DNA from: a phage
NCBI GenBank assembly: GCA_024613925.1
Contig: GCA_024613925.1_4713.1
DNA: 64,000 nucleotides
Strand: one strand, 5' to 3'
The notes under the pieces were generated by a model. That model saw only the letters and a program-made list of their open reading frames with translations. It did not search any database and was not told the DNA's origin. Within the stretch, counting starts at the first letter, position 1. Each line of letters begins with the position of its first letter. Shown in pieces: positions 11,429 through 58,493 of the stretch. The translations under genes and the position numbers were made by a program.

Positions 11429-13651
11429 TCAGTTAGTCTGAACAGGCAGCTTGATGTTTTCAGTGTAGACCTTACGCAGGTTCACAACGTTAATCAGACC
11501 CAGCAGCGGGCAGTTGTTAACGAAGCGGCAGCGCGGCTGAACCATGGTTTCTTTAGAAACCTGACCGTTACGGGTAACCTGAGCAACAGATACCAGTTCC
11601 GGTACGTACAGGAACATACCGAAGGTCAGCGGATCCGGAGAACCCTGGATACCACGAGACAGGGTCACGAAGATCTTATCACGCAGCAGGACGTTCGGGT
11701 TATCTACAACCACGAAGTTGAAGCTTACACCAACGGTACGGAAATCACCATCGGTCTGCAGGAACTGCGGGATGTAGTTGTCAGTTGCTACTACGCAACG
11801 CGGTTTCTCATCAGCGTTGGAAGACAGCAGCTGCAGAGCTGGCTGATAACCAGACTCGGAGTACATGCGATATGCCATCTCACGAATCACGTTCATGATC
11901 GCAGCGGACACTTCAGCACGACGTTCTGCAGTGGTGGTACCCTGAACAGATTTCTCCAGGTCCAGATTGATTTCTTCGAACCACGGACGGATCAGGTAAC
12001 GACCGAAACCTTCGATCTGGATGTCGCCGAACTGACGGAAGCGAGAGGTCGCAACCGCTTTCAGTGCGTCTTTGTAGCTGAACAGTTTCTCAACCATCAG
12101 GTTGTCGAAACGTGCGTTAGCAGCTTGGATCAGAACGTCCAGGTCGGCAGCGTTTTCTTCCCAATCCAGCGGACGAGGAATGGAGAACGGAGCCAGCAGG
12201 CCGATTGCGTAACGTTCTTGCTTCATGTTGAAGTCAAGGTGCTTACCGCGTTCACGACGGTTGCTGTTGTTACGACGGATACGCAGTTCGTAACCAACCA
12301 GTTTGAAGCTCAGGTCTTCAGCCAGTTGTTTGAACTCTTCGCTCTTACGCGGTTGTTCGATGTTGTCCTGATCAACCAGGCGATACAGTTCAGCGTTAGC
12401 GCCGTTAACACGCAGACCGGCTTTCTCTACGTTGGAAGAACCGTAAACTTCGATTGCCAGCTGAGCAGCGGATTTCGAATCGATGATGTCCTGCAGCGCT
12501 TCAGCTCGTGCACCTTTAACGTCAACGGTGTGCTCATCAACGAAGATGGAGTGGGTGTCGAACGCCAGGGTCATTTTGCGGAAGTCGCCTTCCAGGGATT
12601 TCTGGAAACCGTTGGTGATCAGACCAGATACGTCGAACGGTACGTAAGAGGTTTTGCTGTGCTTGGTAGATTTGATTTCCACCAGGATTTTGGTCAGCGT
12701 GATCTGGGCGTCCAGCGCATCGGTGTTGTCGCTGTAACCGTTAGCCAGGATGCTATCGTCTTCAGCAATACCGATCATGTCGATCAGTTTATCAACAGCC
12801 AGGTAAGACGTTTTATAAGTTACGCCTTTAATTTCGATGTTGCGCGGAGCAACGATAGCTTTGTCAACGAAGTACTGCGCGTTGGCATCGTCAGCACGAT
12901 AGATCGGATGCAGATCGGTCACGTCGTTGGACAGAACGTCGTTGTACATGAACGCATCCAGCAGCGGACGACGTACCCAATCAGCCGGAGTACCGTCAGC
13001 GTTACGACGCAGGTGGTTGAACACCAGCGGACGACGGAAAGATACGTCGTAACCGATCTGGTTCGGAGCCAGAACGATGGTGTTATACAGTTCGTTACCC
13101 ATGCGGCTCAGACGAGAAGCCTTCACGTTGAACACAACGGAGTACGGCATCATGTCACGCAGTTCTTTCTGGTCGTAAGACAGCTGAACCAGTTCTTCAG
13201 ATTCGCAACCGCAGGAATCAGCAGCCATCATGACGAAGTTAGAGCTGTCAACTTCACGGCCAGACGGAGTGGTGCTGATGTTCATGGAACGTGCTTGTTT
13301 AGCGTATTCCACCGGGTTACCATGAGCCAGCATGATCAGTGCTGCTGCACGAGCCTGCTGTGCGTTCATGGTGAACAGCTGTTCTTCAATACGCTGCTTC
13401 TCTTCCGGAGTGGTGGTTTCGAAGCCCAGCATGGACAGAACCGGTTCTTCTGCTTTACGGATGTCGCTGCTGAAGCTCTTAACATCCATTTCGTTAACCA
13501 GTTTGTCCATGGATTTGAAATCAACCTTAGAAGCAGATTCCATAGACAGGAAGGTGTTCTCCAGACCTTTGTCTGCTGGTTTGCTACCATTAGCGGTCAG
13601 GAACTGGCGAGTGGCCGCGACCTGTTGGCTAAGAAGGGTTTTATCATTCAT
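11429..13651 (-). CDS. major capsid protein candidate (740 aa; size as in phiKZ-type capsid proteins)
   Basis: Very strong codon bias (the antisense strand is stop-free for 766 codons), TGTAAAGGA RBS region, placed in a head-gene block next to the inner-body-like paralogs. No direct homology test was possible. Confidence 0.5.
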   Translation of the reverse strand: MNDKTLLSQQVAATRQFLTANGSKPADKGLENTFLSMESASKVDFKSMDKLVNEMDVKSFSSDIRKAEEPVLSMLGFETTTPEEKQRIEEQLFTMNAQQARAAALIMLAHGNPVEYAKQARSMNISTTPSGREVDSSNFVMMAADSCGCESEELVQLSYDQKELRDMMPYSVVFNVKASRLSRMGNELYNTIVLAPNQIGYDVSFRRPLVFNHLRRNADGTPADWVRRPLLDAFMYNDVLSNDVTDLHPIYRADDANAQYFVDKAIVAPRNIEIKGVTYKTSYLAVDKLIDMIGIAEDDSILANGYSDNTDALDAQITLTKILVEIKSTKHSKTSYVPFDVSGLITNGFQKSLEGDFRKMTLAFDTHSIFVDEHTVDVKGARAEALQDIIDSKSAAQLAIEVYGSSNVEKAGLRVNGANAELYRLVDQDNIEQPRKSEEFKQLAEDLSFKLVGYELRIRRNNSNRRERGKHLDFNMKQERYAIGLLAPFSIPRPLDWEENAADLDVLIQAANARFDNLMVEKLFSYKDALKAVATSRFRQFGDIQIEGFGRYLIRPWFEEINLDLEKSVQGTTTAERRAEVSAAIMNVIREMAYRMYSESGYQPALQLLSSNADEKPRCVVATDNYIPQFLQTDGDFRTVGVSFNFVVVDNPNVLLRDKIFVTLSRGIQGSPDPLTFGMFLYVPELVSVAQVTRNGQVSKETMVQPRCRFVNNCPLLGLINVVNLRKVYTENIKLPVQTN

Positions 13652-13800: not shown

Positions 13801-14421
13801 TCACAAACGACGCAGGCGATAATGGATGGAACGATTGGTGCAATATGAACGGAACAGCGGCAATTGCGCAACTTCCGCAAGACTCATATTAATTCGCAGG
13901 TGTTCAATAACGGCGCTGTAGTTATCAGCAATACGATCGCTCAATAACTCTTCTGCCAATAAAGGAAGACAATCGACAACAATCGCGATCACATCCTCAT
14001 TAACATAACGCACCCGAACACTCAACGGACGTTTGTCTGGGCTGTAAGTTGGATCCGCCAAACGACGTTCAATATCACGTGGATAGCTCGTCAGTAAATG
14101 GTAATAACCATTGTCATAACGATTGATGTACTCACACAGCACATCAACATTCTTCTCTGGCGGCAAACCTGTTTCGTCATAGTGATACGCAAACATACCA
14201 CCAAGCAGGTTGTTAAGATGAACCGCAGGGTTCGCTTGTTCGTGTTCTTTCGTGATGAAGAAAGGCACGTTCTGGGCTGCGAAATAAAAACCTACATCAT
14301 TGGGCGATAGTATGCCGAAAAGACTTTTAGGGTCTAATAACACCTGTAAGTCATCACGCGCATTTCGAATAATCGCGTGTTCTACCCAATTCGGAACGAC
14401 GAGATATCGGAGTTCCTTCAT
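13801..14421 (-). CDS. hypothetical protein (206 aa)
   Basis: ATG with AGAGG RBS; divergent from the helicase-like gene across a 39-bp spacer. Confidence 0.55.
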   Translation of the reverse strand: MKELRYLVVPNWVEHAIIRNARDDLQVLLDPKSLFGILSPNDVGFYFAAQNVPFFITKEHEQANPAVHLNNLLGGMFAYHYDETGLPPEKNVDVLCEYINRYDNGYYHLLTSYPRDIERRLADPTYSPDKRPLSVRVRYVNEDVIAIVVDCLPLLAEELLSDRIADNYSAVIEHLRINMSLAEVAQLPLFRSYCTNRSIHYRLRRL

Positions 14422-14460
14422 TATGATTACCTCTTTGCAAGTATCGAAAGGATTGAGTCG

Positions 14461-16071
14461 ATGGACCCAAAACAGATAGCCATTAAGATTATTACGTTAC
14501 TGTTTCGTAATGCACAATTGAACCATCCCGATCCCAGTACGATCGAACATGTTAAATCCGTCTTAGATAAAGTCGAACCCCCGAAAAACCATCTCGCTAC
14601 GGACGTAGATAGAGAGGTTTTCAACAACCTGATGAATACCATTCATTGGATGTTGGAACAACCATTATCGGAACCTTTCGATAAACAACAGTTGTTACAA
14701 AGGATACGTTTAGATTGCCTTGAACAAAGCAACCTTTACGAGATTCTTGCCGACGGACTGTACGATATCGAAGACGACGCTCATATCAGTAAGGTCTGTT
14801 CACTCTATTACAACGAATTACGTAATCTGGTTACCCGCCGTCGTGTTTTCGAAACCTTTAGAAACACGTACATGGATATCAGTAACGGGCGACTTGGGGA
14901 TAAAGAATTTTTCGATGCGATGGCGAATTTGAAATTATCGCTAGACAGTATCGAAATGGATACCGAAAATCCCGAAGAGATGGCGTGTATGATTGACGGC
15001 TTTATCGCCGACAGCGAAGACGATATCGAGAAAGTTGAACGTATGTTCGTCAAAGCGATGGAACGTAACAGTCCTGAAGGTGGATTTGTAACCGGCTGGC
15101 AAGGCTTTAATAAAATGTTGGGGTCGGTCGGCGTTTTACGTCGCGGTACCTTAGGACTGATTGGTGCAATGCAGCACCGGAACAAGTCAGGTGTGTTGTT
15201 AAAACTGTTCACGCATCTGGCACTGTACAATAAACCCCATTTCTTTTTTCCGGAGCGAGCAAAGAAAGCATTACTGATTCATTTGTCGACAGAAAACGAA
15301 GTGGAAGAAAACACGCTTCAAATATACAAGAACATGCGAGAACAGGAAACAGGCGAATATGTCGATATTCGTAAGATTGACCCTCGCGAGGCATCACGTT
15401 ATGTGTTGAAGGTGTTCAATGATGCGGGTTTCTCTGTTTGTATGCGTCGTGTTGATGGGATGAGTTATAAACAACTCGCTAATCTCATCGACCATTTCGA
15501 ACGCATGGGTTATGAAGTCATGGCATTGTTCATTGACTATCTGAAAATGTTCTCATCGGAAGGGCTGGATAGAAATGGACCGACCGGCGCATGGCTCCAA
15601 GAACTCTTCAACAAAGTACGTAACCTCTGCAGCGTTAAACGTATTTTAGGTATGACCGTACACCAGCTGTCATCCGACGCGAAGATGCGTGCACGTGACG
15701 GTAACGATGAAGAGTTTGTTGACCAAGTCGCAGGTTTAAGTTACTGGGATGGTTGTAAAGGGATTGACCGTGAGATTGACCTTGAAGTGATTGTTGATAT
15801 CGTTAAGGAACCGGGCAAACGTCAAAGCTGGCAAGTCTTTGCATTAGGGAAAGACCGTCAACCGGATAACGGTTCAACGAAACCTGAAGACAAACATTTC
15901 GCGATGCCATTCCAAACCATCGGGATGCTTCCTGATGATTACGGTAAGAAAGCGGTATATTGCCGCAAGGTTGGCGGACAACCTGTCTCCGAGGGAGGTA
16001 AAGGTCCGTGGAACAAGTTCGATGAAAACGCAGCACCGAGTAATGAATTACAATTTGATTTAGAATTTTAA
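14461..16071 (+). CDS. DnaB-family (SF4) helicase-like protein with non-canonical Walker A
   Basis: ORF-track start is GTG 14377 and overlaps the divergent gene; ATG 14461 has AAAGGA RBS. C-terminal half matches DnaB motifs in order: P-loop region LGLIGAMQHRNKSG (NKS where GKT is expected, nt about 15178-15192), LSTENE (H1a-like), FIDYLKMF (compare IDYLQLM), HQLSSD (compare LSQLNR), CKGIDREIDLEVIV (compare SGSIEQDADLIM). Confidence 0.6.
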   Translation: MDPKQIAIKIITLLFRNAQLNHPDPSTIEHVKSVLDKVEPPKNHLATDVDREVFNNLMNTIHWMLEQPLSEPFDKQQLLQRIRLDCLEQSNLYEILADGLYDIEDDAHISKVCSLYYNELRNLVTRRRVFETFRNTYMDISNGRLGDKEFFDAMANLKLSLDSIEMDTENPEEMACMIDGFIADSEDDIEKVERMFVKAMERNSPEGGFVTGWQGFNKMLGSVGVLRRGTLGLIGAMQHRNKSGVLLKLFTHLALYNKPHFFFPERAKKALLIHLSTENEVEENTLQIYKNMREQETGEYVDIRKIDPREASRYVLKVFNDAGFSVCMRRVDGMSYKQLANLIDHFERMGYEVMALFIDYLKMFSSEGLDRNGPTGAWLQELFNKVRNLCSVKRILGMTVHQLSSDAKMRARDGNDEEFVDQVAGLSYWDGCKGIDREIDLEVIVDIVKEPGKRQSWQVFALGKDRQPDNGSTKPEDKHFAMPFQTIGMLPDDYGKKAVYCRKVGGQPVSEGGKGPWNKFDENAAPSNELQFDLEF

Positions 16072-17519: not shown

Positions 17520-17834
17520 CGTATTTTACCTTTCTATGTTAGGTGGGTTGCGGATAGAAGAATCAATGCATAGATTGATCGTTCTTTGTTAGAAATTATT
17601 GCCGAACCGGTTATGGTTATATGGTTGGTAGTACGCCATAGGCTCCGGTTTAGGGATTTCCATGGTCGGATTTTTGGAATTGATTGCCATCACGTAAATT
17701 GTTACGGGCGATACCGCGTGATTCATTTCGACGGCCACACGGTTGTTTGATCGATTGTTCAACTGGTACTGATTACGATTGGTTGATAACAGTAGAGCTA
17801 CTGCCTAAAACTCTACCGTTGTTTAGATACCGTA

Positions 17835-18695
17835 TTAGGATATACGGTGCATCGTCGGTGCGATTGGTCGTTGACCAAGGTAGAATGTATATCTCGGACG
17901 ATTTTTCGGTGCCTGGTTCGGTTGAGGATTCTTCGAATCGATAGCTAACACGTAGTACTGAAGTGTGGGGTTGAGTGTCGTCAGATAGTTTCTGATGAAC
18001 TCCTCGTTTAAACTTTCAGTCGGGGTTAGTATGTGCCCGTTGATTGTAACGACGGTACCATCGGAACGTATTTCACGAACAATGCACCAAGCCCCCGCAC
18101 CAACATCGGTAGGAATAGTCGTGCTGGGAGTAATGGTTAGATATTTATCGAAGAATTCGCAACAAAGAGGATGCATGTAGACCGTTACGGTATCATCTCC
18201 TGGCGAGGTTCTCTCTTTTGTTACAGGATCCTTCGTCGGTACAAATGTGTTAATTTTGGCTACCTTATCAGCATCTTCGTTCGCTTCGATATAAATCTCT
18301 GCTTTACCATGTACGCTCTGAGCTATACGACGTAACTGTTCGTATGTTTTCGGTGAGGTTAGCTGTACCCGACTGAGCAGCTCATCGTACCAAGCTTCGA
18401 AGGTGCTTGTTGGTATCTTAACGTATGCCTTATTTCCGGTTTCATTTTCATCCCGGAAGATAATCGCAACGGTATCAGGCTCATCAAGAGAATCCAGGTA
18501 AACAATGTGTTCGACCAACGCAGAAAACGTTTTACGTCCGGTTCCTCCATAGTACGGGTTTGCTGAATGAACCAGCCGCCAGTTACATGAAGTTTGGATA
18601 TGATCGAAGGCGTTGATCATGTTTTTACTGTAACGAAAAATTTCAGTAAAATATTCTTTACGTTCTTTACTAAGACGTTTGTATATCTTGGTCAT
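17835..18695 (-). CDS. hypothetical protein (286 aa), tandem paralog of 18749-19549
   Basis: AAGGAG RBS; C-terminal block VYMHPLCCEFFDKYLTITPSTTIPTDVGAGAWCIVREIRSDGTVVTINGH aligns with IYVHPECRTTYDRYLTIAGGTSAPSPVGIGEWRTIREVYPDGRIVTLCGR of the neighbour. Confidence 0.6.
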   Translation of the reverse strand: MTKIYKRLSKERKEYFTEIFRYSKNMINAFDHIQTSCNWRLVHSANPYYGGTGRKTFSALVEHIVYLDSLDEPDTVAIIFRDENETGNKAYVKIPTSTFEAWYDELLSRVQLTSPKTYEQLRRIAQSVHGKAEIYIEANEDADKVAKINTFVPTKDPVTKERTSPGDDTVTVYMHPLCCEFFDKYLTITPSTTIPTDVGAGAWCIVREIRSDGTVVTINGHILTPTESLNEEFIRNYLTTLNPTLQYYVLAIDSKNPQPNQAPKNRPRYTFYLGQRPIAPTMHRIS

Positions 18696-18748
18696 TTTTG
18701 TAGCTCCTTGATTAAAGTAAGGATGGATACGATTATTTATTATCGCTT

Positions 18749-19549
18749 TTAGTTTTTACCATTCCCCCAGCAGGGTTCTTCGTAAAAATGGTGCGGATAG
18801 CGATAATGAGAATTATTGGGTCTTCCTGTCGTTTCTTTCTGTGAGTCGACGACTAACGCGTAAAATAATTGGTGCTTGTCCATCATCGAAAAGTAAGAGG
18901 CAAGCAGTTTTTCGTTTAACGCGTCGCATGGTCGACAGGTACGACCACAAAGCGTTACGATACGGCCGTCAGGATAAACTTCACGGATCGTTCGCCATTC
19001 ACCGATACCAACCGGCGATGGTGCTGATGTGCCGCCCGCTATCGTTAAATATCGGTCGTACGTAGTACGGCATTCGGGATGAACGTAAATTGGCTGGGTA
19101 TTAGTACTGTCGTTTTCGGTTTGATGTTTACTCACGTATACCTCAAGGTAGATCGTTGGTAATCCGATTAGAACGCCGGTATCACGACGTTTTTTGGTAA
19201 TCCGAGGACGGATACTATCGAGCACGCTTTCCAGTTTTTCTGCGACTTCGTCAGCCGGTAATATATACCAGTATTGTGGTTCTGGGTCATCACCATGACT
19301 GAATAAGATACGACAGTCGGTGCTATTATTTTCTTCTACTTCAGGCGGGAAGATGATGGTGTGAACCGTATGACGTTCTGCGATATAAAATCCTTCGGGT
19401 CCCTCAGTTTTGGTAAGTGTAAAGGACCAGGGTGAACAATCTTCAGGTGATAAGCCTGCTAGGAAAAAGTTCGTCCGGATTGGCGCGTCCCATTTCGTGA
19501 TCATGTTAGCGTGACCAATAACACCTAACTTTTGATAAATATCTGTCAT
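18749..19549 (-). CDS. hypothetical protein (about 266 aa), tandem paralog of 17835-18695
   Basis: ORF-track start 19675 would run through the conserved hairpin; internal ATG at 19549 has GAGGA RBS 7 nt upstream. Confidence 0.6.
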   Translation of the reverse strand: MTDIYQKLGVIGHANMITKWDAPIRTNFFLAGLSPEDCSPWSFTLTKTEGPEGFYIAERHTVHTIIFPPEVEENNSTDCRILFSHGDDPEPQYWYILPADEVAEKLESVLDSIRPRITKKRRDTGVLIGLPTIYLEVYVSKHQTENDSTNTQPIYVHPECRTTYDRYLTIAGGTSAPSPVGIGEWRTIREVYPDGRIVTLCGRTCRPCDALNEKLLASYFSMMDKHQLFYALVVDSQKETTGRPNNSHYRYPHHFYEEPCWGNGKN

Positions 19550-19605
19550 GATTGTATCCTCGATTATTAAGAGAAATTTACAATGATAACAGTAACCGCT
19601 GTTAT

Positions 19606-19700
19606 CACCTAGGTAATGTAGTCGTGAAATAAACTGGGGTAATGCGAAATAAGACAGCATAGAACCCTCTCCCAACCCGTAAGGGAAGGGAGAGGGAATA
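19606..19700. repeat. conserved intergenic cassette, copy A (about 90 bp, near-identical to copy B), includes stem-loop 19665-19696
   Basis: CACCTAGGTAATGTAGTCGTGAAATAAACTG ... CGAAATAAGACAGCATAGAA-CCCTCTCCCAACCCGTAAGGGAAGGGAGAGGG-AATAT. Confidence 0.6.
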
Positions 19701-19702
19701 TA

Positions 19703-20335
19703 TCACCAATGATCGAAGGAACCAGGAGTGTTACGAACGATCTCAACTTGGAAGGTTATTGGTACTGATGGCAATGAAACATATTCGCGTTGCGATAGCG
19801 GGACGTTGTCTTCTCGCTCATCGATGCGAGCAGAACCTGTCAGAAATTGGAACATAGCGACTTGAAGCTCATCGGTGAAACGGAGGTACTCACCGATGTG
19901 TGGTGTTGCATCATATCGAATAAGTACGTTGCCAAACCGTCGTGCGATATTTGGAGTATCTGTGAACGAAACAGGGAAATCCAAAGTCATTCCCATCGTT
20001 TCACCTGGCTTCATTTTCCGAATCGACGCAATTGGCACGTCGAAGATATTCCATTCTTCTTTCATCGTGTCTGGAAACACACCGCGATACAAGATGGTCT
20101 TTTGATGACGATGAACGGGTTGTAAACGGTCAACCAATATTTTCAAAGGTTTAAGTTCTTCAGCCAATTCATAATCTGCTTGGATGTTCCACTTTGCCGC
20201 AAGTTCCATTAGGTTGGGATACGCGCTATATTTATTGACGATAGCCCAGTTAACATTACGCAAATCAATAGGAAGGAATTTGATAATTTCCTTGTTGAAT
20301 ATCCATTGGTTTAATTTCTTAATCTCCGAAAGCAT
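19703..20335 (-). CDS. hypothetical protein (about 210 aa)
   Basis: ORF-track start 20434 overlaps the upstream gene by 83 nt; the internal ATG at 20335 lies 16 nt after the upstream stop with a weak AGTGAG RBS. Start uncertain. Confidence 0.5.
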   Translation of the reverse strand: MLSEIKKLNQWIFNKEIIKFLPIDLRNVNWAIVNKYSAYPNLMELAAKWNIQADYELAEELKPLKILVDRLQPVHRHQKTILYRGVFPDTMKEEWNIFDVPIASIRKMKPGETMGMTLDFPVSFTDTPNIARRFGNVLIRYDATPHIGEYLRFTDELQVAMFQFLTGSARIDEREDNVPLSQREYVSLPSVPITFQVEIVRNTPGSFDHW

Positions 20336-20351
20336 GATGTACTCACTACAG

Positions 20352-21719
20352 CTAAACGGTTGGACGAACGGTGTTGTCTTTTTCTGGTGCAAGCCATAAC
20401 GTGACCGTACCATGGCATGTCCACTGTGGTTCACGTACAGAAGAACCAGCCATCGTTACAGCGCAATCGGTACGCATGACAACCCCGTATGCTTCGCAGA
20501 GATTGTTATCCTGCATCCATACAACTTTAGCAGGCATGCCGGGATACAACATATCCATGTTTGCGTATTCCCACACCAACTGCATTGTTCTACCGCGTAA
20601 TCCAGCAGTATTACTTAATTCACGCCACCGGTTATCGGTTACGCGTCCCATCCCTTTCGCCACCTTCACGTTATCGCTACGCTCTTCAGTTACGTACTCG
20701 CTAACGTTTACAGTACGACTGATTATTGTATCGCCTCCTTTTGATAACGTCATTCCCTGACTCATCTGACTTGCCGAAACAAAACGCCCACCCGCATTAC
20801 CTAACAACGAAGCCGCGTTATTGATGTCGTTTACCGACGCCCCTCTCGTACATGCAATTTCCACGTATTTGTCACGATTGATCCAGGTCTTGTCCATCCC
20901 CGGAAACATATCGGCAGGATAGTTGTAAAAGATAGCCGTACGGCGACCGTCAGAGAAACGGGTTTCGTCATAGAGAGGATAAATATACAGATACGGGGAT
21001 TGGTAATAACAACCGACGTCCGCTGAATAAATACCGACCTGGTTCTGGATTTTGTCTACGAGATCCATTGCGTTGGTACCATGCGGAAGAATAAGCAACT
21101 TGAACAGGTTGTCGTTATTCGGTGCAACAATATCCACACCCTGCATTTTGAATCCGGTGTCGGCTTCAACCGCAGAAAGTATCTTGCTGAATTCGAGCCG
21201 TAACACATCCAGCACTTTCGACCCGGTATAGTTCTCACCGGTTTCTGATTGCATGAAGCTTTCAAGAACAGGATCGAACAGTTGAAATTGAAGATCGACC
21301 ATTTGTTCGTAGTCTTTCTTCGAAGAATCGGTTGCGGTACGTTCGTCGTTAGCAGACATACGACTGTCTACGGTTGTTAAACAAACCGCTCGGTAGACGT
21401 AAGCTTGTGCAGCATCGTCTACGGTTTGGCGTTGTCCGCGCATCAGGCTGTACGCCTGCACGATGATGCGCATTTTAAGTTGTTGTTGGTACGGTAGAAT
21501 GTATTTTCCGTAACTGCCTGGCGGGAACTTTACAGAGATATAAAGTTCATCTCCTGCGTTACGTTCGTAGTCTCGATACGTGTGGACTTGAGTCACTAAA
21601 GGAACAGACACCGTCATTGACGGCGTGATTAATTCCGCGGTGACTTTATACGCAACAGCAACTGCTTCCTGCGCAAATGTACCGATATACCGTCCTAACG
21701 GCGTCTGTTTGTAATCCAT
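20352..21719 (-). CDS. hypothetical protein (455 aa), possibly structural
   Basis: Long ORF; its ATG is 2 nt after the stop of the upstream gene (operon-like packing). Confidence 0.6.
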   Translation of the reverse strand: MDYKQTPLGRYIGTFAQEAVAVAYKVTAELITPSMTVSVPLVTQVHTYRDYERNAGDELYISVKFPPGSYGKYILPYQQQLKMRIIVQAYSLMRGQRQTVDDAAQAYVYRAVCLTTVDSRMSANDERTATDSSKKDYEQMVDLQFQLFDPVLESFMQSETGENYTGSKVLDVLRLEFSKILSAVEADTGFKMQGVDIVAPNNDNLFKLLILPHGTNAMDLVDKIQNQVGIYSADVGCYYQSPYLYIYPLYDETRFSDGRRTAIFYNYPADMFPGMDKTWINRDKYVEIACTRGASVNDINNAASLLGNAGGRFVSASQMSQGMTLSKGGDTIISRTVNVSEYVTEERSDNVKVAKGMGRVTDNRWRELSNTAGLRGRTMQLVWEYANMDMLYPGMPAKVVWMQDNNLCEAYGVVMRTDCAVTMAGSSVREPQWTCHGTVTLWLAPEKDNTVRPTV

Positions 21720-42594: not shown

Positions 42595-45500
42595 TTATCT
42601 TACGTTATTGCTATTCTGCTGTTCGCTGAACCAACCGTACACCTTGAGATCGGTACCGTATTTCAATGCGATATACGCATTGAGCGCAGCACAGAACAAA
42701 GACGCGAATGCCCATATCAGCGAAGGATCAACATCTTCCGTTACCACCGGGAGAGTATTATCCGGTTCCCACGATGGAGAACCGTCCATGAACGTCGTGT
42801 ACCATTCCCGCCGTTGTTCTTCGGTGGTAAAGTCGCTATGGGGTTCCAATGCTTCTTTTGCCAAACGTCGATATTCGAACATATGCGTTGCTAAAGCCGA
42901 TGAGTTACCAGATTCGCCTTCATAGTTCGGATCCACCGCATAACAGAGTTCTGTTGAATCTAACAAAGCAACCGCCTGTGTGATGCTGTCGGCAGTGCCT
43001 GCACCATAGAGCTCGATAGACTGCGAAAGCTTCTCACAGAACGCATTTAACGCGGCAGGATTGGACACCTGAAGGTCAAGGCCTAATGTCCACGGATAGT
43101 TACTGAACACACCCGTAAACCGCGGCATGACACCCAACAGATGTTGTCCGATTACGGCACGGTTATAAACAGCCCGGTTATAGACTTGAAACGCAGCCTC
43201 CAAGGCTTGGTTATAATGACGACGAAGTTCGTCACGCGAGTTGCGGAATCTGTTTGCCGCAAGACTCGTGGCTGCGACGCTACAAACATCGTAATTGGTG
43301 GACGAGAGCACAGTTTCGTTAAGATCGAACGATTCCTGTTTCAACGATCCGCTAACCGCTGCTGCTTCGCTGTTTGCTTTATCGACAACTGTACTCAAAG
43401 CGTTGATGTAACGTTTCGCTCGGACTTCCAACCATTGTGCAATGCCGAGAATATCCACCGCAGCTTTAGCAAGATCGCGTGCATTCACGATTTCGTTCTT
43501 CAACGCCCCTAAACCTTTATTCTCAGGCGAAGAGGCTTGTTGACGAATCATGCTGTTCAACATGGTAAGCAGATTATCCAACTCATGTCCACTGACCTTG
43601 TTACGCGCATCGGTAATCGGCCCTTGCAGGAATTTACGGCAACCGTCGTTGTATCGAATCAGTTTATCCACATCGATCGATTCGTTCGTAGATTCCTTGA
43701 ACTGATCCTTCAATTCTTCACGGTAGTCATGGATTTCACTTGCGAGATTATCGATAGTGATACCGTTATGTCCAAGAAGAACTTTATTGAAGCTACCTTT
43801 CTCGAATGCAAGAGCAAGACCTTCACGAATCTTAGCGAGTTTATCCTGATCGAGTTCACGACCGTTCGATAGCTCTTTCACTTCCGAGCTGATTAGTGCC
43901 GCAACGTTACCCAGATTGTCGGTAACCCCTTTGAACGCTCCCGACCAGATCGTTCCTGCTTCAGCATATTTCGCAATGGTCTGAATACCGACGGTGTGCA
44001 GCGACGCTAAACGTTTCTTCGTGCCTTCGGTAAGCAGTGCGTCTTTAGCTCGCGTAAGTTGACTGTTATTAGCTTCCGCCTGCTGAATCGCCGCTTTCGC
44101 ACTTCCATTACGCCAGCTCTTAACCAACCAATCAACCAAACGTTTTAAGATGTTGACGGTGTATTCCATCGTCCGCCGTAACGTTTCCCACGCGCTTTCT
44201 GCGGTATAGATGCCGTACCCTTCCATCTTCAACGCTTTCAAGCTTGTTTGACGTGCCAACCATTCTACCGTTGCAGAACAAACGTTTACTAATGCTTCCA
44301 GGTAGTTGTAATAGACGTCTGTTGCGGCCGTTTCGTTGAGCTTTGAATGCAGATAAAACTGATCGTAAAGTTCGTCGTCATCGCCGAAGGCATCGTAGTT
44401 CCACAGCTCAGTATCGCAGCCTGTGCCGCAGAAGACGTCTGCTGTTGTAAACTCTTTAAGCGCTTTAGCCGCATCATTCGTCAGGAATTTACCTGTTTCA
44501 ACTACATCATCGACGTTAAGCTTGGGGAGTTCATCAGTAACTGGCTCTTGCAACATTAACGTGTTGAAGAATGCGTTGTACTTGTATCCGAGCCATTTTG
44601 GATAACTGCTTTCAGGTATCGTAGACAACGGCTTGATTTTCTTGGCTTCAGCCAGCGTGTCTTTTGCAACCTGATATTGGTTTTCCCCGGCCTTGATACG
44701 ACGTAATGCTTTTTCTTCCAACTGCTGGAGTTTGGCATGCCGTGCTTGTGCGGGAGCTTCAACAAGTTTTTGTACCGACCGCACTGCAGAAATCGCTTCT
44801 TTTAATACGATCATCGGCATACGAACTTTGCCGTCGTCAAAACTAAGAGCCCGAGCGACACGCTTACTTACGACAGGTTTGTCGTGGATATTTCGTTCCA
44901 CCCACGATTTGTTTGCGTAAGTTTGGGTGAGCTGCTGCTGGATATTTTCAAGGTATTTCCAGCTTTTGGACGCTTTGCTATCCAAAAGCGGATTCGGTCC
45001 CTTCTTATCGAAAAGTTTCAGAATCGGATCAAAGAAACCTTCCTGTACGAGATCGATACACGTGTAACCATCAGCCGCTTCGATTTCCTCTTGGGTTTTA
45101 TCCCAGAGTTGTTCACTGTGTACCGCACGAGCTGTTTCTGATACGGACATAATAACTTCAGTGACAACCTCAGCGTAAGACAATACTGCCCGCACCCACT
45201 CTACCAACATACGCTGATAGATAACACGTTGACATTGACAACGTGTGATGATGGCGAGATAACTTACGCTGTCGAGTTGTTCATTCGTACGAACATCCTC
45301 AACTTGTTCAATTAGTTGTTTAACTAACTGTGCTGTCTCTGGGTAATCGTGGACGACGTCGCGAATAACTTGCGAAGCATACACTGCGGTACCAAGGGCG
45401 AGATGGAGTTTGGTTGCATCCCACTCTTTTTCTGCTGTTGCCGGATTGTTCGGTATTAGGTAACCGATATCGTCGAAATATGGCTTAATAACATCGATAT

Positions 45501-46191
45501 TAGTCTTACTCTTAGTCGGTATCAGCGTATCATCAATGTTGCTTTGGTCTGGTGTTAATGCTAGCATACCCTTGAGAATTTGAGTATCAGCAGCGTATAA
45601 CGAAGTTAATGCTTCAGTTACGTCAGCGAGATCGATAATAGGCGACCATACCTTCAAGAGTTTACTTTCGTATTTCTCAATCGCGATTTCGATATCTTCC
45701 TTTACATCGGGATGATCGATAAGACGACCTACCGTCTGTTGTATCTCGGCAAATCGGTTGACATGATTTTGAGTCAATGCGGTAAAATCGTCAACGTACG
45801 ACGCATTGTCTTCAAGACGCGTAAGTTCCTGCTCCAGAAGATCTTTTACTTGCGTGGCGGATGCGTTTCTCAACTGTTCCCCGATAATCGCGATGGCTTT
45901 ATCGACAACACGGCAGGCTTCATTGAAACCGGTTGTTGAAGGTAACTCGGTCCATAATGCCAGCGGCTTACCTTCCATTGCGTCAGGAAGGGAATATGAC
46001 AACATTGCTAGTTGTTGACGTGATACCTGTTTGTCACGATGTAACGTTTCTTTCAACGCCAGAAGCTCATCAAGACCCACACTGCTAGGGATCGTGGGAT
46101 GTGATACGGCGTTGATATTTTCTGTCAATGACTCAAGAACCAATAAACCATTTTCAGCGGAAGATAACCCTGCTTTAAGGTATTTGTTCAT
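42595..46191 (-). CDS. giant hypothetical protein (1198 aa), predominantly helical by composition
   Basis: ATG with GGAG RBS immediately after hairpin 46207-46237; no catalytic motif recognised. Confidence 0.55.
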   Translation of the reverse strand: MNKYLKAGLSSAENGLLVLESLTENINAVSHPTIPSSVGLDELLALKETLHRDKQVSRQQLAMLSYSLPDAMEGKPLALWTELPSTTGFNEACRVVDKAIAIIGEQLRNASATQVKDLLEQELTRLEDNASYVDDFTALTQNHVNRFAEIQQTVGRLIDHPDVKEDIEIAIEKYESKLLKVWSPIIDLADVTEALTSLYAADTQILKGMLALTPDQSNIDDTLIPTKSKTNIDVIKPYFDDIGYLIPNNPATAEKEWDATKLHLALGTAVYASQVIRDVVHDYPETAQLVKQLIEQVEDVRTNEQLDSVSYLAIITRCQCQRVIYQRMLVEWVRAVLSYAEVVTEVIMSVSETARAVHSEQLWDKTQEEIEAADGYTCIDLVQEGFFDPILKLFDKKGPNPLLDSKASKSWKYLENIQQQLTQTYANKSWVERNIHDKPVVSKRVARALSFDDGKVRMPMIVLKEAISAVRSVQKLVEAPAQARHAKLQQLEEKALRRIKAGENQYQVAKDTLAEAKKIKPLSTIPESSYPKWLGYKYNAFFNTLMLQEPVTDELPKLNVDDVVETGKFLTNDAAKALKEFTTADVFCGTGCDTELWNYDAFGDDDELYDQFYLHSKLNETAATDVYYNYLEALVNVCSATVEWLARQTSLKALKMEGYGIYTAESAWETLRRTMEYTVNILKRLVDWLVKSWRNGSAKAAIQQAEANNSQLTRAKDALLTEGTKKRLASLHTVGIQTIAKYAEAGTIWSGAFKGVTDNLGNVAALISSEVKELSNGRELDQDKLAKIREGLALAFEKGSFNKVLLGHNGITIDNLASEIHDYREELKDQFKESTNESIDVDKLIRYNDGCRKFLQGPITDARNKVSGHELDNLLTMLNSMIRQQASSPENKGLGALKNEIVNARDLAKAAVDILGIAQWLEVRAKRYINALSTVVDKANSEAAAVSGSLKQESFDLNETVLSSTNYDVCSVAATSLAANRFRNSRDELRRHYNQALEAAFQVYNRAVYNRAVIGQHLLGVMPRFTGVFSNYPWTLGLDLQVSNPAALNAFCEKLSQSIELYGAGTADSITQAVALLDSTELCYAVDPNYEGESGNSSALATHMFEYRRLAKEALEPHSDFTTEEQRREWYTTFMDGSPSWEPDNTLPVVTEDVDPSLIWAFASLFCAALNAYIALKYGTDLKVYGWFSEQQNSNNVR

Positions 46192-49538: not shown

Positions 49539-50858
49539 TTACGCGACGACAGAGTCGAGTTTCGCTGACACTTTGAACAGATCGTTGTTGATAACCGTAG
49601 ACAGTGTTTTCTGAACCTGCTCCTGCTTCACGGCTTGATGAACGTCAGGACGCAATGCGATGGTAATGAGCTCCATAATGGTACGATTATCGTTGAGAGT
49701 TTTCAAGATCTTGTCGATTTCCTTTATTGCGTCTAATGTCGATACGCGGATATCCTGAGGCAAATCGCGATCTTTAAGACGCCCAACCAACTCTTGTTTT
49801 AATTTCGCAACACGATCCTTATCACTGGTATACGTGGAATAGGTGAAGTCATACTGCGTTATTGTTTTCAGGTTGACGAAAAGAGCCACCGTGCCCATTG
49901 TACCCAGGAATGGGTTAATTAACGATAAACCGGCGATTGCACTAATAACTGACAATGAACATATGGCATATTGCGCCCAAACACTAACGCGATCCCTTAC
50001 TGATATTCTTCCGAAGTGTTTATACATCTTCGCTAGTGTGTCTGCCATTGCAGCCCCACCACCATGACGGGTGACGAATTGATCAGCAGCAAATTCCGCT
50101 GAGGTATCAGAATACCGTCCGGTATGCGTTGCGACACGTGCCTGTTCTTCTTTATTGCTTATATACACGGTATACCAAGTGGCAACATCGCTTGATTCCG
50201 CAATGGCGTTGACATCAACCGTTGTGCCCATCGCATCGTTTAATGATTTCGCGAGAGTGATCTTTTTCTCTTTATCCGTTGTTTGCAGTAGTTCGCGTGC
50301 GACGGTTGCGAGAGAAAAATCGGTCTTAGCGGATTCGGCGATAAATTCCAGGAAAGTAAAAGCATGCCCAACCTCGTGCATGATAAGCGCTGCTTTGTTT
50401 TCTGGAATAAATTCCGTGGTACGAATAAATCCGTCGGTTACTAATACACGGATAGTGATTTTCTCGAATGCGCCTTTCACCCTACCGTTGACAAGATCGA
50501 CCACACCGACGACTTCGTCGATGTTTTTGCTTAACTGTTTAAAGTCGCTGTTTCGGTAGAACTGTTTACGCCATTCCTCAATAAGCACGTTGTTTTTTGT
50601 AATATCCGGAGTAATACAGAAACAGTTAACTTCACTCATGTTCGGTATTACTTCTGTCTGGATAGTCAACCCAGTGTATTTGCGTATTAAATCGGTTAAT
50701 ATTTTACCACCGATATATTTTACCTTTTCCTCATAGCTGGTAAGATTATCCATTGTTTTGAAGAACTCGGTCATTTCCTTGAACATGGAACCATCTTGAA
50801 ACTTGATGGCCTCCATCGTTAATTCGTCATGACCATACACGCGTTGTAGTAATGACAT
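49539..50858 (-). CDS. putative membrane-associated zinc metalloprotease (HExxH ... ExxAD, M48/M56-like)
   Basis: HEVGH at residues 161-165 and EFAAD at 255-259 (spacing typical of HtpX/Ste24/BlaR1-type gluzincins, from memory); two hydrophobic helices at about residues 293-330. Confidence 0.5.
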   Translation of the reverse strand: MSLLQRVYGHDELTMEAIKFQDGSMFKEMTEFFKTMDNLTSYEEKVKYIGGKILTDLIRKYTGLTIQTEVIPNMSEVNCFCITPDITKNNVLIEEWRKQFYRNSDFKQLSKNIDEVVGVVDLVNGRVKGAFEKITIRVLVTDGFIRTTEFIPENKAALIMHEVGHAFTFLEFIAESAKTDFSLATVARELLQTTDKEKKITLAKSLNDAMGTTVDVNAIAESSDVATWYTVYISNKEEQARVATHTGRYSDTSAEFAADQFVTRHGGGAAMADTLAKMYKHFGRISVRDRVSVWAQYAICSLSVISAIAGLSLINPFLGTMGTVALFVNLKTITQYDFTYSTYTSDKDRVAKLKQELVGRLKDRDLPQDIRVSTLDAIKEIDKILKTLNDNRTIMELITIALRPDVHQAVKQEQVQKTLSTVINNDLFKVSAKLDSVVA

Positions 50859-51080: not shown

Positions 51081-52580
51081 ATGAGCGAACAAGAACGAAA
51101 ACCTAAGAAGAAACTGCTCGGTATTCAATGTCGACACATCAGCTATAACGAAGCGAACGATGGCAGCAAGAACGACCTCATGATCGCAAAAGAGATCATG
51201 TTCTTTGATGATAATACGCAAGCGACGAACCTTCGCTTCTTCGAGAATTACAAACGTCCGTTTTGGGTGACGGTAGAGAGTAAACGCAAGAACAAATATA
51301 AAAAGGAAAGCGAGAAGCTATCGCATGTGCGTCGCTACGATGTCCGTCAAAGTGAACTGGTTGAAAAGATCAGTTCGGTGCTTTATAAAAGACGTGCTGA
51401 TGATAACACCCGTTTACAACAGCTTGCACGGAGTCCCTACCTCTATGGCACGGACGTTAGCGCCAGCTGTTATTTAAAAACCCAATACAATACAAAATGG
51501 CCGGAATACGTCGATAAATTACCTGCTTCCATTGCCTGTTTCGATATCGAAACCGACGTTGTCCACGGGCACGGTAAGATCGTCTGTATGTCTATTACAA
51601 TGGGATACAATGCGATACTTTGCTATACCAAGGACTTCGTTGGTCATATTCCGAATGCGATTGAGAAAACCCATGAGAAGATTCGATATTACCTGGCCGA
51701 ACGTCTGAACACCAAAGAAGATCCGCACGCATTTGAAAAATACCAATACGATGTTCGAATCGTAGAAAGTCCAGCACAAGCGGTCATCCAATGCATGCAG
51801 AAGGTTCACGAATGGCAACCGGATTATCTCCTTGGCTGGAATATCGCGTTCGATATTCCGCGTATGCTCCAGGCACTGAACGAGGAAGGGTATCGTCCCG
51901 AGGATGTTTTCTCCGATCCTCGTGTACCACCTAAATACCGTATTGCTCGCTGGGTGCCACCGAAGACCGACAAGGTATCTGCTTCAGGTCGTAAAACCAA
52001 CCTTACCCTTGAGCAAACCTGGCCGATGTTTTATACGATGGCCACGTATCAGGTTATGGATGCGATGTGTGGTTATAAGTTCGTTCGTTTAGGAAGACCG
52101 GATGAGGGACGCTATTCACTCGATGCGGTATTAGAGCGAAATAAATGCCATACGAAATTAAAAGCAATTCCTGGTACAGAAGGGTTCACAGAGCTCGCCT
52201 GGCACGAAGAGATGCAAACGAACCATCAAATCGACTACGGCGTATATAACCTTTGGGATAACCAAGGCATCGAGGCGTTGGACCAGAAAACAAAAGACTA
52301 TTCGATGACCATCCCTATTCGTTTGGCGGCGTCGGATTTGAAAGATTTCAGTTCTAACCCTAAACGTATCTGCGATAAACTTTTCTTCGTTTATCTTAAC
52401 CGTGGGGAAGTCATGGGATGCACCGCCGACGATATGACTCAGGAAGAAGATAAGTGGGTTATCTCACGAACCGGACATATCGTCACATTACCATGCGATC
52501 TCATGGCGGACAACGGCATTCATCTCTTCTGGGATATGCCGAACCTGAGAAGTTATATTCGATTATTTGTTGCGGATTAA
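51081..52580 (+). CDS. family-B DNA polymerase, N-terminal 3'-5' exonuclease part (exon 1 or N-terminal fragment)
   Basis: Exo I FDIETD (residues 154-159, nt 51540-51557), Exo II GWNIAFDIP (about 253-261), Exo III-like YQVMD (324-328). No motif B or C before the stop at 52578-52580; the called stop is probably intron sequence. Confidence 0.65.
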   Translation: MSEQERKPKKKLLGIQCRHISYNEANDGSKNDLMIAKEIMFFDDNTQATNLRFFENYKRPFWVTVESKRKNKYKKESEKLSHVRRYDVRQSELVEKISSVLYKRRADDNTRLQQLARSPYLYGTDVSASCYLKTQYNTKWPEYVDKLPASIACFDIETDVVHGHGKIVCMSITMGYNAILCYTKDFVGHIPNAIEKTHEKIRYYLAERLNTKEDPHAFEKYQYDVRIVESPAQAVIQCMQKVHEWQPDYLLGWNIAFDIPRMLQALNEEGYRPEDVFSDPRVPPKYRIARWVPPKTDKVSASGRKTNLTLEQTWPMFYTMATYQVMDAMCGYKFVRLGRPDEGRYSLDAVLERNKCHTKLKAIPGTEGFTELAWHEEMQTNHQIDYGVYNLWDNQGIEALDQKTKDYSMTIPIRLAASDLKDFSSNPKRICDKLFFVYLNRGEVMGCTADDMTQEEDKWVISRTGHIVTLPCDLMADNGIHLFWDMPNLRSYIRLFVAD

Positions 52581-52648
52581 GAAATAAATCGGTTAAGTAT
52601 TACTACTCTGTTCGATGGTTATGGGATAACCAAATGGAGTAGTCATGC

Positions 52649-53755
52649 ATGAATAAATGGTATTTACCAGAGGCACGTTTTAAATACTACGCAACTGACG
52701 ATGGTCTTTTCCATTCAACTGGAGAGGCTGTTCCGGTTACCGTTAAAGATGGTATCTCGTATGTCGAGATCGACTGGTATCGTGGTCTAGGTCTATATGA
52801 CGCCGGACTCGCTGTTATGTGTGCGTTGAGAGCGATAAACATACCAATCTACTTACTTGATCAAGCATATTCTCTTTACATTGACGGGAATCCTGAGAAT
52901 GTAAAACGTGAGAACCTGCTTTACCGTTTCAAAGGCGGTAGGTTGGAAGTACCTGGATGTCCCGGCTATTATTTCATCCCCTTCCATTCTCGTTATGCTA
53001 TTAACGAGGAAGGTTTGGTGATCAATGTCGAGACGGGGTTCGAAAAACGCTGGTCGCAAATGAAACCTAACAAGAAACAAAAGACCCATGGCGGTTACGT
53101 TTACCAACGTACGGTAAATGATAACGGATTCACATCCCAGCTTTATCAGCATCGTGCTATGGGTTACGTGTTTCTTGAATACGGTGCCGACGTTATGGAT
53201 AAGACAATAAACCATAAGAACGGCATCAAATGGGATAATCGTCCATGTAACATTGAGTGGGCAACGTATACGGACAATAATAAGCATGCGGTTGATAGCG
53301 GTCTTCGTACAGAAGGATTGCATCCTGTTAAGGTTAAGGATTACAACACCGGTGAAGTCAGGGTATTCCCTTCAATCGCTGCGTGTTGTGCTGCTTATCC
53401 ATGCTTGGAACGTAAACGTGTTTGGTATTGGATGACGCGTAAAACGAAATTCATGCCAGCCTGCAATCTGTATTTCAAAGAAGTTGACGATGATACCCCA
53501 TGGCCAGATTGGCAGATCGGACAGCCTCGTCGTCTTCAAGAATATACGATGCCTAACCCTATCGCAGCTATCGATAAACAAACTGGTAAACGTTATGTGT
53601 TTGCATCAATTGCTCACGCACAACGAGAGACAGGTGTTTCTAACGTGACTATCATGAAGTACTGTCGTAATAGGCTTACAGAAGGTCGTTCTCCATTCAT
53701 CTTCCGCTATTTTGAAGATGTTAGTTCGATGCCTGTAGGCCTTAACGACGCTTAA
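52649..53755 (+). CDS. HNH homing endonuclease (I-HmuI-like)
   Basis: GGAG RBS; HNH core INHKNGIKWDNRPCNIEWATYTDNNKHA; two helix-turn-helix-like modules (FPSIAACCAAYP and FASIAHAQRETGVSNVTIMKYCRN). Confidence 0.8.
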   Translation: MNKWYLPEARFKYYATDDGLFHSTGEAVPVTVKDGISYVEIDWYRGLGLYDAGLAVMCALRAINIPIYLLDQAYSLYIDGNPENVKRENLLYRFKGGRLEVPGCPGYYFIPFHSRYAINEEGLVINVETGFEKRWSQMKPNKKQKTHGGYVYQRTVNDNGFTSQLYQHRAMGYVFLEYGADVMDKTINHKNGIKWDNRPCNIEWATYTDNNKHAVDSGLRTEGLHPVKVKDYNTGEVRVFPSIAACCAAYPCLERKRVWYWMTRKTKFMPACNLYFKEVDDDTPWPDWQIGQPRRLQEYTMPNPIAAIDKQTGKRYVFASIAHAQRETGVSNVTIMKYCRNRLTEGRSPFIFRYFEDVSSMPVGLNDA

Positions 53756-53759
53756 CCGA

Positions 53760-54110
53760 TTTTAGGTCCCGGTGGGGATAACGCCCCCACCGGATTCCCG
53801 TTAATTGCTGGAACCCCCTAAAGCCTTTCGACCACAGCGGATTCTGAAAAGAAAAACGTCAAGGTTAGAAAACAGAAAGGATGTTCGTAAGGAAACGATA
53901 AATGGGCAATCAGCAGCGAAGCTTCTAAGGGCCTGCATTAGCAATAAGACCTAAGAAGAACGTTCAACGACTATCCGGTCGCGCGGAGTAAGGGACAAGC
54001 GTCCCCAAACACGGGAGGGGTGCGAAAGCATTCCATGATATAGTCTGCTCCTAAGTGAAAGCTTAGGCGGGTGGTACACACCGGCATAAGAGTTGCGTCT
54101 TATGTGGACA
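53760..54110 (+). ncRNA. group I intron catalytic core (ribozyme) candidate
   Basis: P-like AATTGCTGGAA (53803-53813), Q-like AATCAGCAGCG (53908-53918), R-like GTTCAACGACTAT (53962-53974), S-like GATATAGTC (54037-54045); P7 pairing GACTA/TAGTC; hairpins CCTAAG-tgaaag-CTTAGG and CATAAGA-gttgcg-TCTTATG at the 3' side. Confidence 0.6.
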
Positions 54111-54368
54111 ATGGCTTGACATTTCTTCAAGTTATCCCAACGGGCAGATACTGCTCAATCTATCCAGAGCATGTGTTTTTCGTGAGCTCTCGCGCATTGA
54201 GGGCGTCTCTGACTATCAATTCAGGAAGTTAGGTATCAACTTTATTACCGGAGGTAAAACGAACGCTGTAGACTTCTGTAGAATCGTTTATAAAGCGCCA
54301 TCGATGTTTGAACTCTTAGAACATTTCGATGCGACGCGTCCAAAAGAGGAAGCGCGGACCATCGAATG
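54105..54368 (+). CDS. possible downstream exon of the DNA polymerase gene (no ATG; motif-A-like DISSSYPN)
   Basis: About 100 stop-free codons directly 3' of the ribozyme core without an initiator Met; contains D-I-S-S-S-Y-P-N (compare DxxSLYPS) and KLGINFITGG. Too short to complete a polymerase. Boundaries tentative. Confidence 0.3.
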
Positions 54369-55481: not shown

Positions 55482-55516
55482 AGCCCTTCCCCGGCCTTGA
55501 CGGCTAGGGAAGGGTA
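55482..55516. promoter_or_regulatory. imperfect GC-rich stem-loop in the 5' leader of 55012-55452
   Basis: CCCTTCCCC-GGCC-ttga-CGGC-ta-GGGAAGGG. Confidence 0.4.
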
Positions 55517-55529
55517 TGTTTACGTGTAA

Positions 55530-55925
55530 TTACTCTTTGACGTCAGTTGTCGTTTCGACATGCTTCTCACTACTGACGTACCAGAGCAGGTACGTTGGGA
55601 AAAGATTGACCTCTAAGCTAAATGGGATATTGTATTTCTCTTCCATTTTACAGAGATGTTCTTTAAGTAAATTTCTCGCGTCTCTGTCACCACGAACAGA
55701 GTGCCAGTCTAGTTCTTTGTTCTCCTTTACCAGGACCTCTACGATGATACGTTGCTCGTGAACCTCGGTTTTCACAGTGAAAAGTAAATCGCTGCTATCA
55801 AAACGGGTAAAACGAATGTATGAGCCAGGTGTTTTTTCTTGTTTAATAATATCGATCATGGTAGAAATGCGCGGATGATCGATGTTGTCGTTAACAGCTT
55901 TAACGATGGATTCTACAATGCTCAT
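55530..55925 (-). CDS. hypothetical small protein (131 aa), member of the small-gene array
   Basis: ATG with AAGGA RBS. Confidence 0.55.
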   Translation of the reverse strand: MSIVESIVKAVNDNIDHPRISTMIDIIKQEKTPGSYIRFTRFDSSDLLFTVKTEVHEQRIIVEVLVKENKELDWHSVRGDRDARNLLKEHLCKMEEKYNIPFSLEVNLFPTYLLWYVSSEKHVETTTDVKE

Positions 55926-56084
55926 TTTTTTTATCCTTAATGTTATCGGTTTAGAAATATTACTTAAATATTGTTTTATTTATCGATGGTTGTTACCCAT
56001 GATGGGAAAGCCGGATGGAAACAGAGCGTGAACGTAACCTTCGTATCGTATTTAATCGCTGAACTTTATCTTTGATAGACATGA

Positions 56085-58278: not shown

Positions 58279-58395
58279 CTCGACATCCTTTTATATTGGA
58301 TTGATTGCAATTGTCTTAAATAGATGATAAGATATTTTGCTCTTATCATTAAGGTAACGCTTACGCGTCGCGTTCATGATGTCATGCATCATGAA

Positions 58396-58486: not shown

Positions 58487-58493
58487 AAAATTG

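Follow-up and report, generated by a model that had tools for sequence, protein, structure and literature searches.

A divergent DnaB-like replicative helicase gene with a remodelled P-loop in a Goslar-like chimallivirus

A divergent DnaB-like helicase has already been described in jumbo phages related to phiKZ. Iyer et al. (2021, PMC7824862) reported no DnaG or AEP primase in group 1 jumbo phages and described a divergent DnaB whose ATP-binding motif is modified and whose Mg2+ site is intact; they judged it to be catalytically active. The motif is printed there as 'Walker B', evidently a slip for Walker A. The replicative helicase was listed among the core genes of the Chimalliviridae and used as a phylogenetic marker, which agreed with the polymerase and the major capsid protein (MCP), and a GFP fusion of the DnaB-like helicase of phage RAY, gp315, was located inside the phage nucleus (Prichard et al. 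2023, PMC10299810). Pfam devotes a separate entry to the family (PF20307, divDNAB, 'Divergent DnaB-like ATPase'), whose member in the E. coli jumbo phage vB_EcoM_Goslar, gp043, is labeled 'DnaB-like replicative helicase' in RefSeq. Thus, the RefSeq annotation, the Pfam entry and the altered ATP-binding motif, noted in 2021, were all known before this analysis.

Here, we examined a gene in a 64,000-nucleotide stretch of phage DNA (contig GCA_024613925.1_4713.1 of NCBI GenBank assembly GCA_024613925.1), which is referred to below as the window. The gene is located at positions 14461..16071 on the + strand, from an ATG to the stop codon inclusive, and encodes 536 amino acids. It showed 98.0% nucleotide identity and 99.3% amino-acid identity to its ortholog Goslar gp043, and its product matched PF20307 with an E value of 1.8e-120 (402.3 bits against a gathering cutoff of 26, profile positions 3-355 of 356) and PHROG 3213 with an E value of 1.8e-122. 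The ortholog in phiKZ is gp118, which showed 31% identity to the window protein (E=9e-62). Another candidate, phiKZ gp122, had been guessed from an ASO table and was ruled out; the phiKZ annotation gives gp118, which is absent from the ASO paper. In chimalliviruses, this divergent DnaB-type replicative helicase has been described before, and relative to PF20307 the gene shows nothing of substance that is new.

The whole window is collinear with positions 32008..91828 of the Goslar genome, with identities of 88-98%, and a Pfam search of the ORFs in the window's insertion relative to Goslar returned no matches. The Goslar annotation includes a nuclear shell protein and PhuZ. By this collinearity and the gene content of Goslar, the source phage is of the phiKZ-like, chimallin-encoding type. 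A word-indexed search gave 23 family clusters at 90% identity, and family representatives at 50% identity numbered 1599 with E<=1e-3 and 656 with E<=1e-30. Homologs were found in 282 phage records, all of them phiKZ-like, whose hosts were Pseudomonas, Erwinia, Salmonella, Vibrio, Serratia, Aeromonas, Klebsiella, Ralstonia, and others.

The start of the gene could also be read further upstream, from a GTG at 14377, but this longer frame would run into the divergent upstream gene. The N-terminus MDxKLL of the family and a likely ribosome-binding site, AAGGA (14448..14452, + strand), 8 nt 5' of the ATG, support the start at 14461. In the AF2 model of the protein (pLDDT 80.6), a helical N-terminal tier is followed by a long linker helix and then by a C-terminal tier with a RecA fold. 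The all-helical tier and the linker helix (aa 1-203; 14461..15069, + strand) are the predicted equivalent of the DnaB N-terminal domain according to AF2 and Foldseek. In the ATPase tier (aa ~210-485; 15088..15915, + strand), the model shows the alternating strands and helices of a RecA fold, and the same region gave the profile and hhalign matches to the DnaB C-terminal domain. The best PDB matches in Foldseek were full-length DnaB of V. cholerae, G. stearothermophilus, and E. coli, together with T4 gp41, with E values of 1e-15 to 1e-13 over ~500 columns. The predicted structure therefore has the two-tier architecture of DnaB, with both tiers matched.

The ATPase tier contains the motifs of a DnaB-type motor, all on the + strand. 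The P-loop, or Walker A motif, reads GAMQHRNKSG (aa 235-244; 15163..15192) and is remodelled, with N241 (nt 15181-15183) in place of the Gly before K242. The segment LSTENE (15283..15300) carries the catalytic Glu, E278, which was aligned to the Glu of DnaB SLEM. The Walker B motif IDYLKM (aa 358-363; 15532..15549), which includes D359, was aligned to DnaB IDYLQL, and the sensor glutamine motif HQLSSD (aa 401-406; 15661..15678), which includes Q402, to DnaB (A/S)QLS/N. In addition, LGKDRQ (15844..15861), with K464 and R466 as the putative lysine/arginine finger, was aligned to GKQRN of E. coli DnaB, and GIDREIDLEVIV is located at aa 434-445. All four motifs quoted in an initial annotation made from the letters of the window (GAMQHRNKSG, IDYLKM, HQLSSD, and the segment at aa 434-445) were found in the ORF.

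The same annotation assigned the protein to the DnaB family and noted that Asn replaces the Gly preceding the Walker A Lys, and three alignments bore this out. A 24-member family profile matched Aquifex DnaB (4nmn) with an E value of 1.5e-5 and placed 'ALqhnfKsG' opposite 'ARPGMGKTA'. In the hhalign comparison with E. coli DnaB (86% probability, E=4.9e-6, 254 columns), AMQHRNKS stood opposite ARPSMGKT, and STEN was paired with SLEM, IDYLKM with IDYLQL, HQLS with SQLN, and GKDR with GKQR. The hhalign comparison of the family with T4 gp41 was non-significant (probability 0.24), and its register was identical. Because the register agrees in the three alignments, N241 occupies the Gly position of GK[ST]. 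The protein contains no shifted canonical P-loop. GAMQHRNKSG itself does not fit the canonical [AG]xxxxGK[ST], with the Lys and Ser kept. The window protein alone had no match to Pfam DnaB_C (PF03796) at E<=0.1, and a few homologs had a precomputed or faint match to this entry.

Compared with bacterial DnaB and T4 gp41, the window protein is alike in the two-tier predicted fold, the Walker A Lys-Ser/Thr, the catalytic Glu, the Walker B IDYL, the QLS sensor, and the GKxR finger. It differs from them in its low identity (12-15%) and in a P-loop that has no Gly before the Lys and has His at the position three residues before the Lys (K-3). In the phage group, no DnaG-type primase and no known loader is recognisable. 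T7 gp4 is also a phage RecA-fold SF4 ring helicase, but it has a canonical GxGKS P-loop and a fused primase domain that is absent here. The acidic C-terminal tail of T7 gp4, with its terminal aromatic residue, contacts the polymerase. The window protein ends in a disordered aromatic and acidic tail (aa 516-536; 16006..16068, + strand; pLDDT < 50 in the AF2 model), and the tails of the family finish with motifs such as PFWDF, WWAE, and DLEF. By its residues, the tail of the window helicase may resemble that of T7 gp4, which is a lead, and it might have a role in partner binding.

Within PF20307, Goslar gp043, phiKZ gp118, and RAY gp315 have in common with the window protein the remodelled P-loop pattern, the capsid-adjacent position, and the phage family. 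The Goslar clade differs from the other members in its longer C-terminal tail, and the window protein differs from most members in having the minority Asn (~10% of representatives) before the Lys, where the majority have Tyr or Phe.

To our knowledge, Gly at the position before the Lys (K-1) is near-universal in P-loop NTPases. The variation at this position was examined in an alignment of 171 sequences that drew on the window protein, 23 homologs, and the top 150 representatives, the last described as representatives at <=50% identity. The K-1 residue, N241 in the window protein, was Tyr in 72, Phe in 63, Asn in 17, Trp in 8, Gly in 4, His in 4, and Ser, Cys, and Asp in one sequence each. The first Gly of the Walker A motif (G235) was Gly in only 76 of the 171 sequences, and K-3 (H239) was His in 149. 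The Lys (K242), Ser/Thr243, E278, and D359 were each present in 171/171, and Y360 in 170, Q402 in 168, K464 in 167, and R466 in 166. On a neighbor-joining (NJ) tree, position 241 required at least 52 changes and K242 required 0; Asn at position 241 formed 13 separate pure clades and Gly formed 4. The family pattern [GSNA]-A-[LM]-Q-H-x-[YFWNHG]-K-[ST]-G was matched by the P-loop of the window protein, and the P-loop of phiKZ gp118 reads GGLQHQYKSG.

GK[ST] was present in 4 of the 171 members, and the gene context was checked for one of them, P0090 (VIGALEHQGKSTVS). This GKS member lies on contigs of 87-99 kb that carry a phiKZ-type MCP and a 202-aa ORF followed by the divergently transcribed helicase. 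The initial annotation had reasoned that orthologs with GKT or GKS would speak against its reading of the motif. Such orthologs exist, and P0090 is a positional one. From the GK[ST] orthologs, including P0090, it follows that position 241 interchanges G, N, Y, and F freely. As far as the aligned sequences tell, the missing Walker A Gly is a variable trait of the whole family and is not peculiar to this gene.

This variation also bears on a narrower reading, in which Asn at K-1 gives the Goslar clade a property absent from the Tyr/Phe majority, for example in NTP preference or regulation. The exact GAMQHRNKSG is identical throughout the clade (the window protein and P0001-P0003) at only 74% overall identity, and the AF2 models of an Asn and a Gly variant differ. 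In the model of the window protein, strand beta1 covers aa 231-236, M237 and Q238 are the only coil, and helix alpha1 starts from H239 (K-3). In that of P0090, a canonical loop of five residues separates the strand from the helix, which starts from the lysine. These geometries were compared only through the DSSP strings of unliganded AF2 models, which makes the differences weak evidence. The occurrence of Asn in scattered lineages fits better with near-neutral exchange within Y, F, W, N, H, and G. The 13 separate lineages in which Asn arises led us to reject a clade-specific innovation, and a special property of the Goslar clade is accordingly very improbable.

The residues found at K-1 in the 171 sequences include no beta-branched, Pro, or aliphatic one. 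In the P-loop 'nest' geometry, a left-handed backbone conformation is favoured by Gly and Asn, and the K-1 residue set would be compatible with a position that requires such a conformation. The His at K-3 is a second deviation, because most P-loop classes have a small residue (Gly, Ala, or Ser) there (PMC9599529). The models hint that non-Gly variants may take a helix-extended P-loop, and an unusual nucleotide-binding geometry, which was raised as an alternative in the initial annotation, is plausible. A stronger version of this idea is that the P-loop of PF20307, in which K-1 is aromatic or Asn, K-3 is His, and the first Gly varies, represents a structurally distinct way of triphosphate binding in a RecA-fold motor. 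Helix alpha1 might be extended at its N terminus, for example, with a side chain touching the nucleotide or the neighbouring subunit, which could alter NTP preference or coupling and could have co-evolved with the divergent polymerase in the phage nucleus. We put this proposal forward tentatively and regard it as rather doubtful.

The substitution had also been taken to suggest a non-catalytic loader or regulator. According to this reading, loss of the Walker A Gly abolishes nucleotide binding or hydrolysis, and the protein would be a pseudo-helicase with a loading, scaffolding, or regulatory role. The Gly before the Lys is indeed replaced, K-3 is His rather than a small residue (PMC9599529), and a PDB sequence search (noise with a single-sequence phmmer query; repeated with the family profile) and the literature yielded no enzymology and no other biochemical or structural study of any family member. 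Because no such study was found, we infer ATPase activity from conservation only. However, the Lys, the Ser/Thr, the catalytic Glu, and the Walker B Asp are invariant and the sensor Gln and Arg finger are near-invariant among the 171 sequences, which would be unexpected in a dead ATPase. The exchange of G, N, Y, and F among orthologs, at least 52 times on the tree, and the GKS motif of P0090 in a like gene context also argue against inactivation, as does the judgment of Iyer et al. (2021, PMC7824862) that the family is active.

Furthermore, the gene is under purifying selection. It differs from Goslar gp043 by 27 synonymous and 5 non-synonymous changes (dN/dS 0.045), and the 4 amino-acid changes are all confined to the N-terminal half, outside the ATPase tier. 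In phiKZ, Table S2 of a TnSeq study (PMC12676376) lists 0 insertions in the 1476 bp of PHIKZ118, as for the MCP, and 17 in an adjacent gene of 369 bp; these counts come from the supplement, and orf118 is not discussed in the main text. By these counts, phiKZ gp118 looks essential-like, and the zero count could partly reflect polar effects.

The possibility of a second, canonical helicase elsewhere in the genome was also considered, since it had been proposed as a check in the initial annotation. The Goslar annotation lists only two other helicases, both SF2 (gp160 and gp164). Searches of the Goslar genome and the window by tblastn with E. coli DnaB, T4 gp41, and UvsX returned no matches, not even gp043, showing that there is no canonical DnaB in either and that this search is insensitive to a divergent DnaB. 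A tblastn search with the window helicase itself found no second copy. Besides thymidylate kinase, SbcC, and the SF2 helicase gp164, a scan for the canonical [AG]xxxxGK[ST] picked up a few matches that look like chance, and no other RecA- or DnaB-like candidate. Thus, neither the annotation, tblastn, nor the Walker A scan revealed a second canonical helicase, and the genome offers no alternative SF4 helicase for a pseudo-helicase to load or regulate. The loader or regulator reading is unsupported, given the conserved catalytic residues, the dN/dS of 0.045, the phiKZ TnSeq counts, and the lack of another SF4 helicase; we consider it highly unlikely. From the conservation of its sequence, the window helicase is in all likelihood catalytically active.

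The surroundings of the gene were also examined. The upstream neighbour (13801..14421, - strand) encodes 206 amino acids, and the phiKZ-type MCP (11429..13651, - strand) was identified by Pfam PF25620 with an E value of 1.2e-216. The initial annotation called the location inside a structural block atypical and the 206-aa protein unknown. Neither description was borne out. The arrangement of an RNAP subunit, a hypothetical gene, the phiKZ-type MCP, and a small ORF (177-213 aa), with the helicase divergent, was conserved in 8 of the 8 loci checked, namely, those of the window/Goslar, phiKZ, KEN51, PhiEaH1, Aphrodite1, RSF1, OBP, and the P0090 metagenomic contig. This synteny corresponds to core-genome block 5 of Prichard et al. 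(2023, PMC10299810), which holds the helicase and the MCP and also an RNAP subunit. According to the Goslar annotation and a cryo-EM preprint (10.64898/2026.04.21.720040), the neighbour is the homolog of Goslar gp42, a component of the inner-capsid vertex-binding complex and itself a homolog of phiKZ gp119. BLASTP of the 206-aa protein against phiKZ-type gp119 was non-significant (E=0.15), and the positional orthologs of the neighbour diverged too much in a 6-way alignment for homology to be shown. The 206-aa protein is a structural component rather than a partner of the helicase.

With the gene placed among capsid genes and divergent from a capsid vertex protein, it might instead encode an active RecA-fold motor other than the fork helicase, for example a capsid or packaging motor. 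A recombination or branch-migration ATPase (RadA/Sms-like) is another form of the same idea, since these phages depend heavily on recombination, with RuvC and SbcC as examples in Goslar, and the phage group has no primase to couple with (Iyer et al. 2021); the Goslar annotation likewise lists no primase. On the other hand, the best structural matches of the predicted model are the two-tier DnaB and gp41, including the N-terminal tier, and the RAY ortholog shares its location inside the nucleus with the DNA polymerase rather than being found with capsids (PMC10299810). The helicase phylogeny is congruent with those of the polymerase and other core genes, and gene order does not track functional modules in these phages, as block 5 with its RNAP subunit illustrates (PMC10299810). 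Moreover, the Goslar virion cryo-EM paper (10.64898/2026.04.21.720040) makes no mention of gp43 or a helicase. A motor that acts away from the fork is therefore unlikely, though somewhat less so than an inactive protein.

Altogether, we consider it highly probable that the gene encodes a catalytically competent DnaB-type (SF4, RecA-fold) replicative helicase of a Goslar-like chimallivirus, with a remodelled P-loop. By analogy with DnaB, the protein would form a ring, probably a hexamer, and act as an NTP-driven ssDNA translocase that unwinds DNA at the replication fork inside the phage nucleus, presumably together with the family's divergent B-type DNA polymerase. The P-loop is remodelled family-wide to [GSNA]-A-L-Q-H-x-[YFN..]-K-[ST]-G, in which K-1 is mostly aromatic, Asn in ~10% of lineages including the Goslar clade, and occasionally Gly. 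Because the residue before the Lys is interchangeable and the other catalytic residues are kept, phosphate binding by backbone amides is presumed to be kept in a loop of modified conformation.

The missing Gly is a family-wide feature that evolves freely within Y, F, W, N, H, and G, and it should not be read as inactivation. The interest of the case is biochemical and belongs to the family as a whole, in which NTP would be hydrolyzed by a motor whose Walker lysine follows a bulky residue and whose K-3 is His. The apparent essentiality of the gene in phiKZ makes this helicase a sensible choice for structural studies of the chimallivirus replisome.

The divergent DnaB-like helicase encoded at 14461..16071 (+) ends in a disordered C-terminal tail (aa 516-536; window 16006..16068) in which aromatic and acidic residues are abundant (PWNKFDEN...LQFDLEF), and the C-terminal ends of other members of its family, the PF20307 proteins of phiKZ-like phages, are PFWDF, WWAE or FFENT. 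The tail of T7 gp4, which binds the polymerase, is acidic and terminates in Phe, and the helicase tail bears a possible resemblance to it. Compared with the family consensus, the phiKZ ortholog (NC_004629, 115975..117450) is annotated with an N-terminus that is approximately 23 aa shorter. The PhiPA3 ortholog was matched at two separate places within its record (HQ630627), and it may therefore be split or interrupted.

The 206-aa ORF next to the helicase gene (13801..14421, -) was described as an unknown in the initial annotation. The ORF is the equivalent of gp42 of phage Goslar, which was identified by cryo-EM as a capsid inner vertex-binding-complex protein and a homolog of phiKZ gp119 (10.64898/2026.04.21.720040). 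The Goslar gp42/phiKZ gp119 homology of the 206-aa protein was undetected by sequence comparison alone.

In addition, a stretch of approximately 2.7 kb (17622..20352), located between the equivalents of gp047 and gp048, is missing in Goslar. Two of its ORFs, of 286 aa (17835..18695, -) and 308 aa (18749..19675, -), are paralogs that share 32% identity over their C-terminal 110 aa (E = 5e-21). Neither these two ORFs nor a third ORF (19703..20434, -) showed a match in Pfam. Window 19545..19701 and 58388..58489 both matched a single Goslar intergenic segment (49657..49816), located upstream of gp048, with 89-96% identity. The two copies constitute a repeated intergenic element, which is possibly a promoter or a recombination site. 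One of the copies adjoins the 2.7-kb insertion.

Three further stretches, 44231..45892, 49806..50755, and 55515..56098, showed no match to Goslar in blastn, and their surroundings are collinear with Goslar at 88-98% identity. The first of them lies within a long ORF (42595..46191, -). A homing-endonuclease ORF with HNH_3 and NUMOD1 domains (52649..53755, +) is the immediate downstream neighbour of the gene for the DNA polymerase B exonuclease domain (51081..52580) and lies within a region showing no alignment to Goslar (52581..54113). Goslar carries its own NUMOD1/HNH gene, gp069, at the equivalent place, which points to a replacement of the homing endonuclease.
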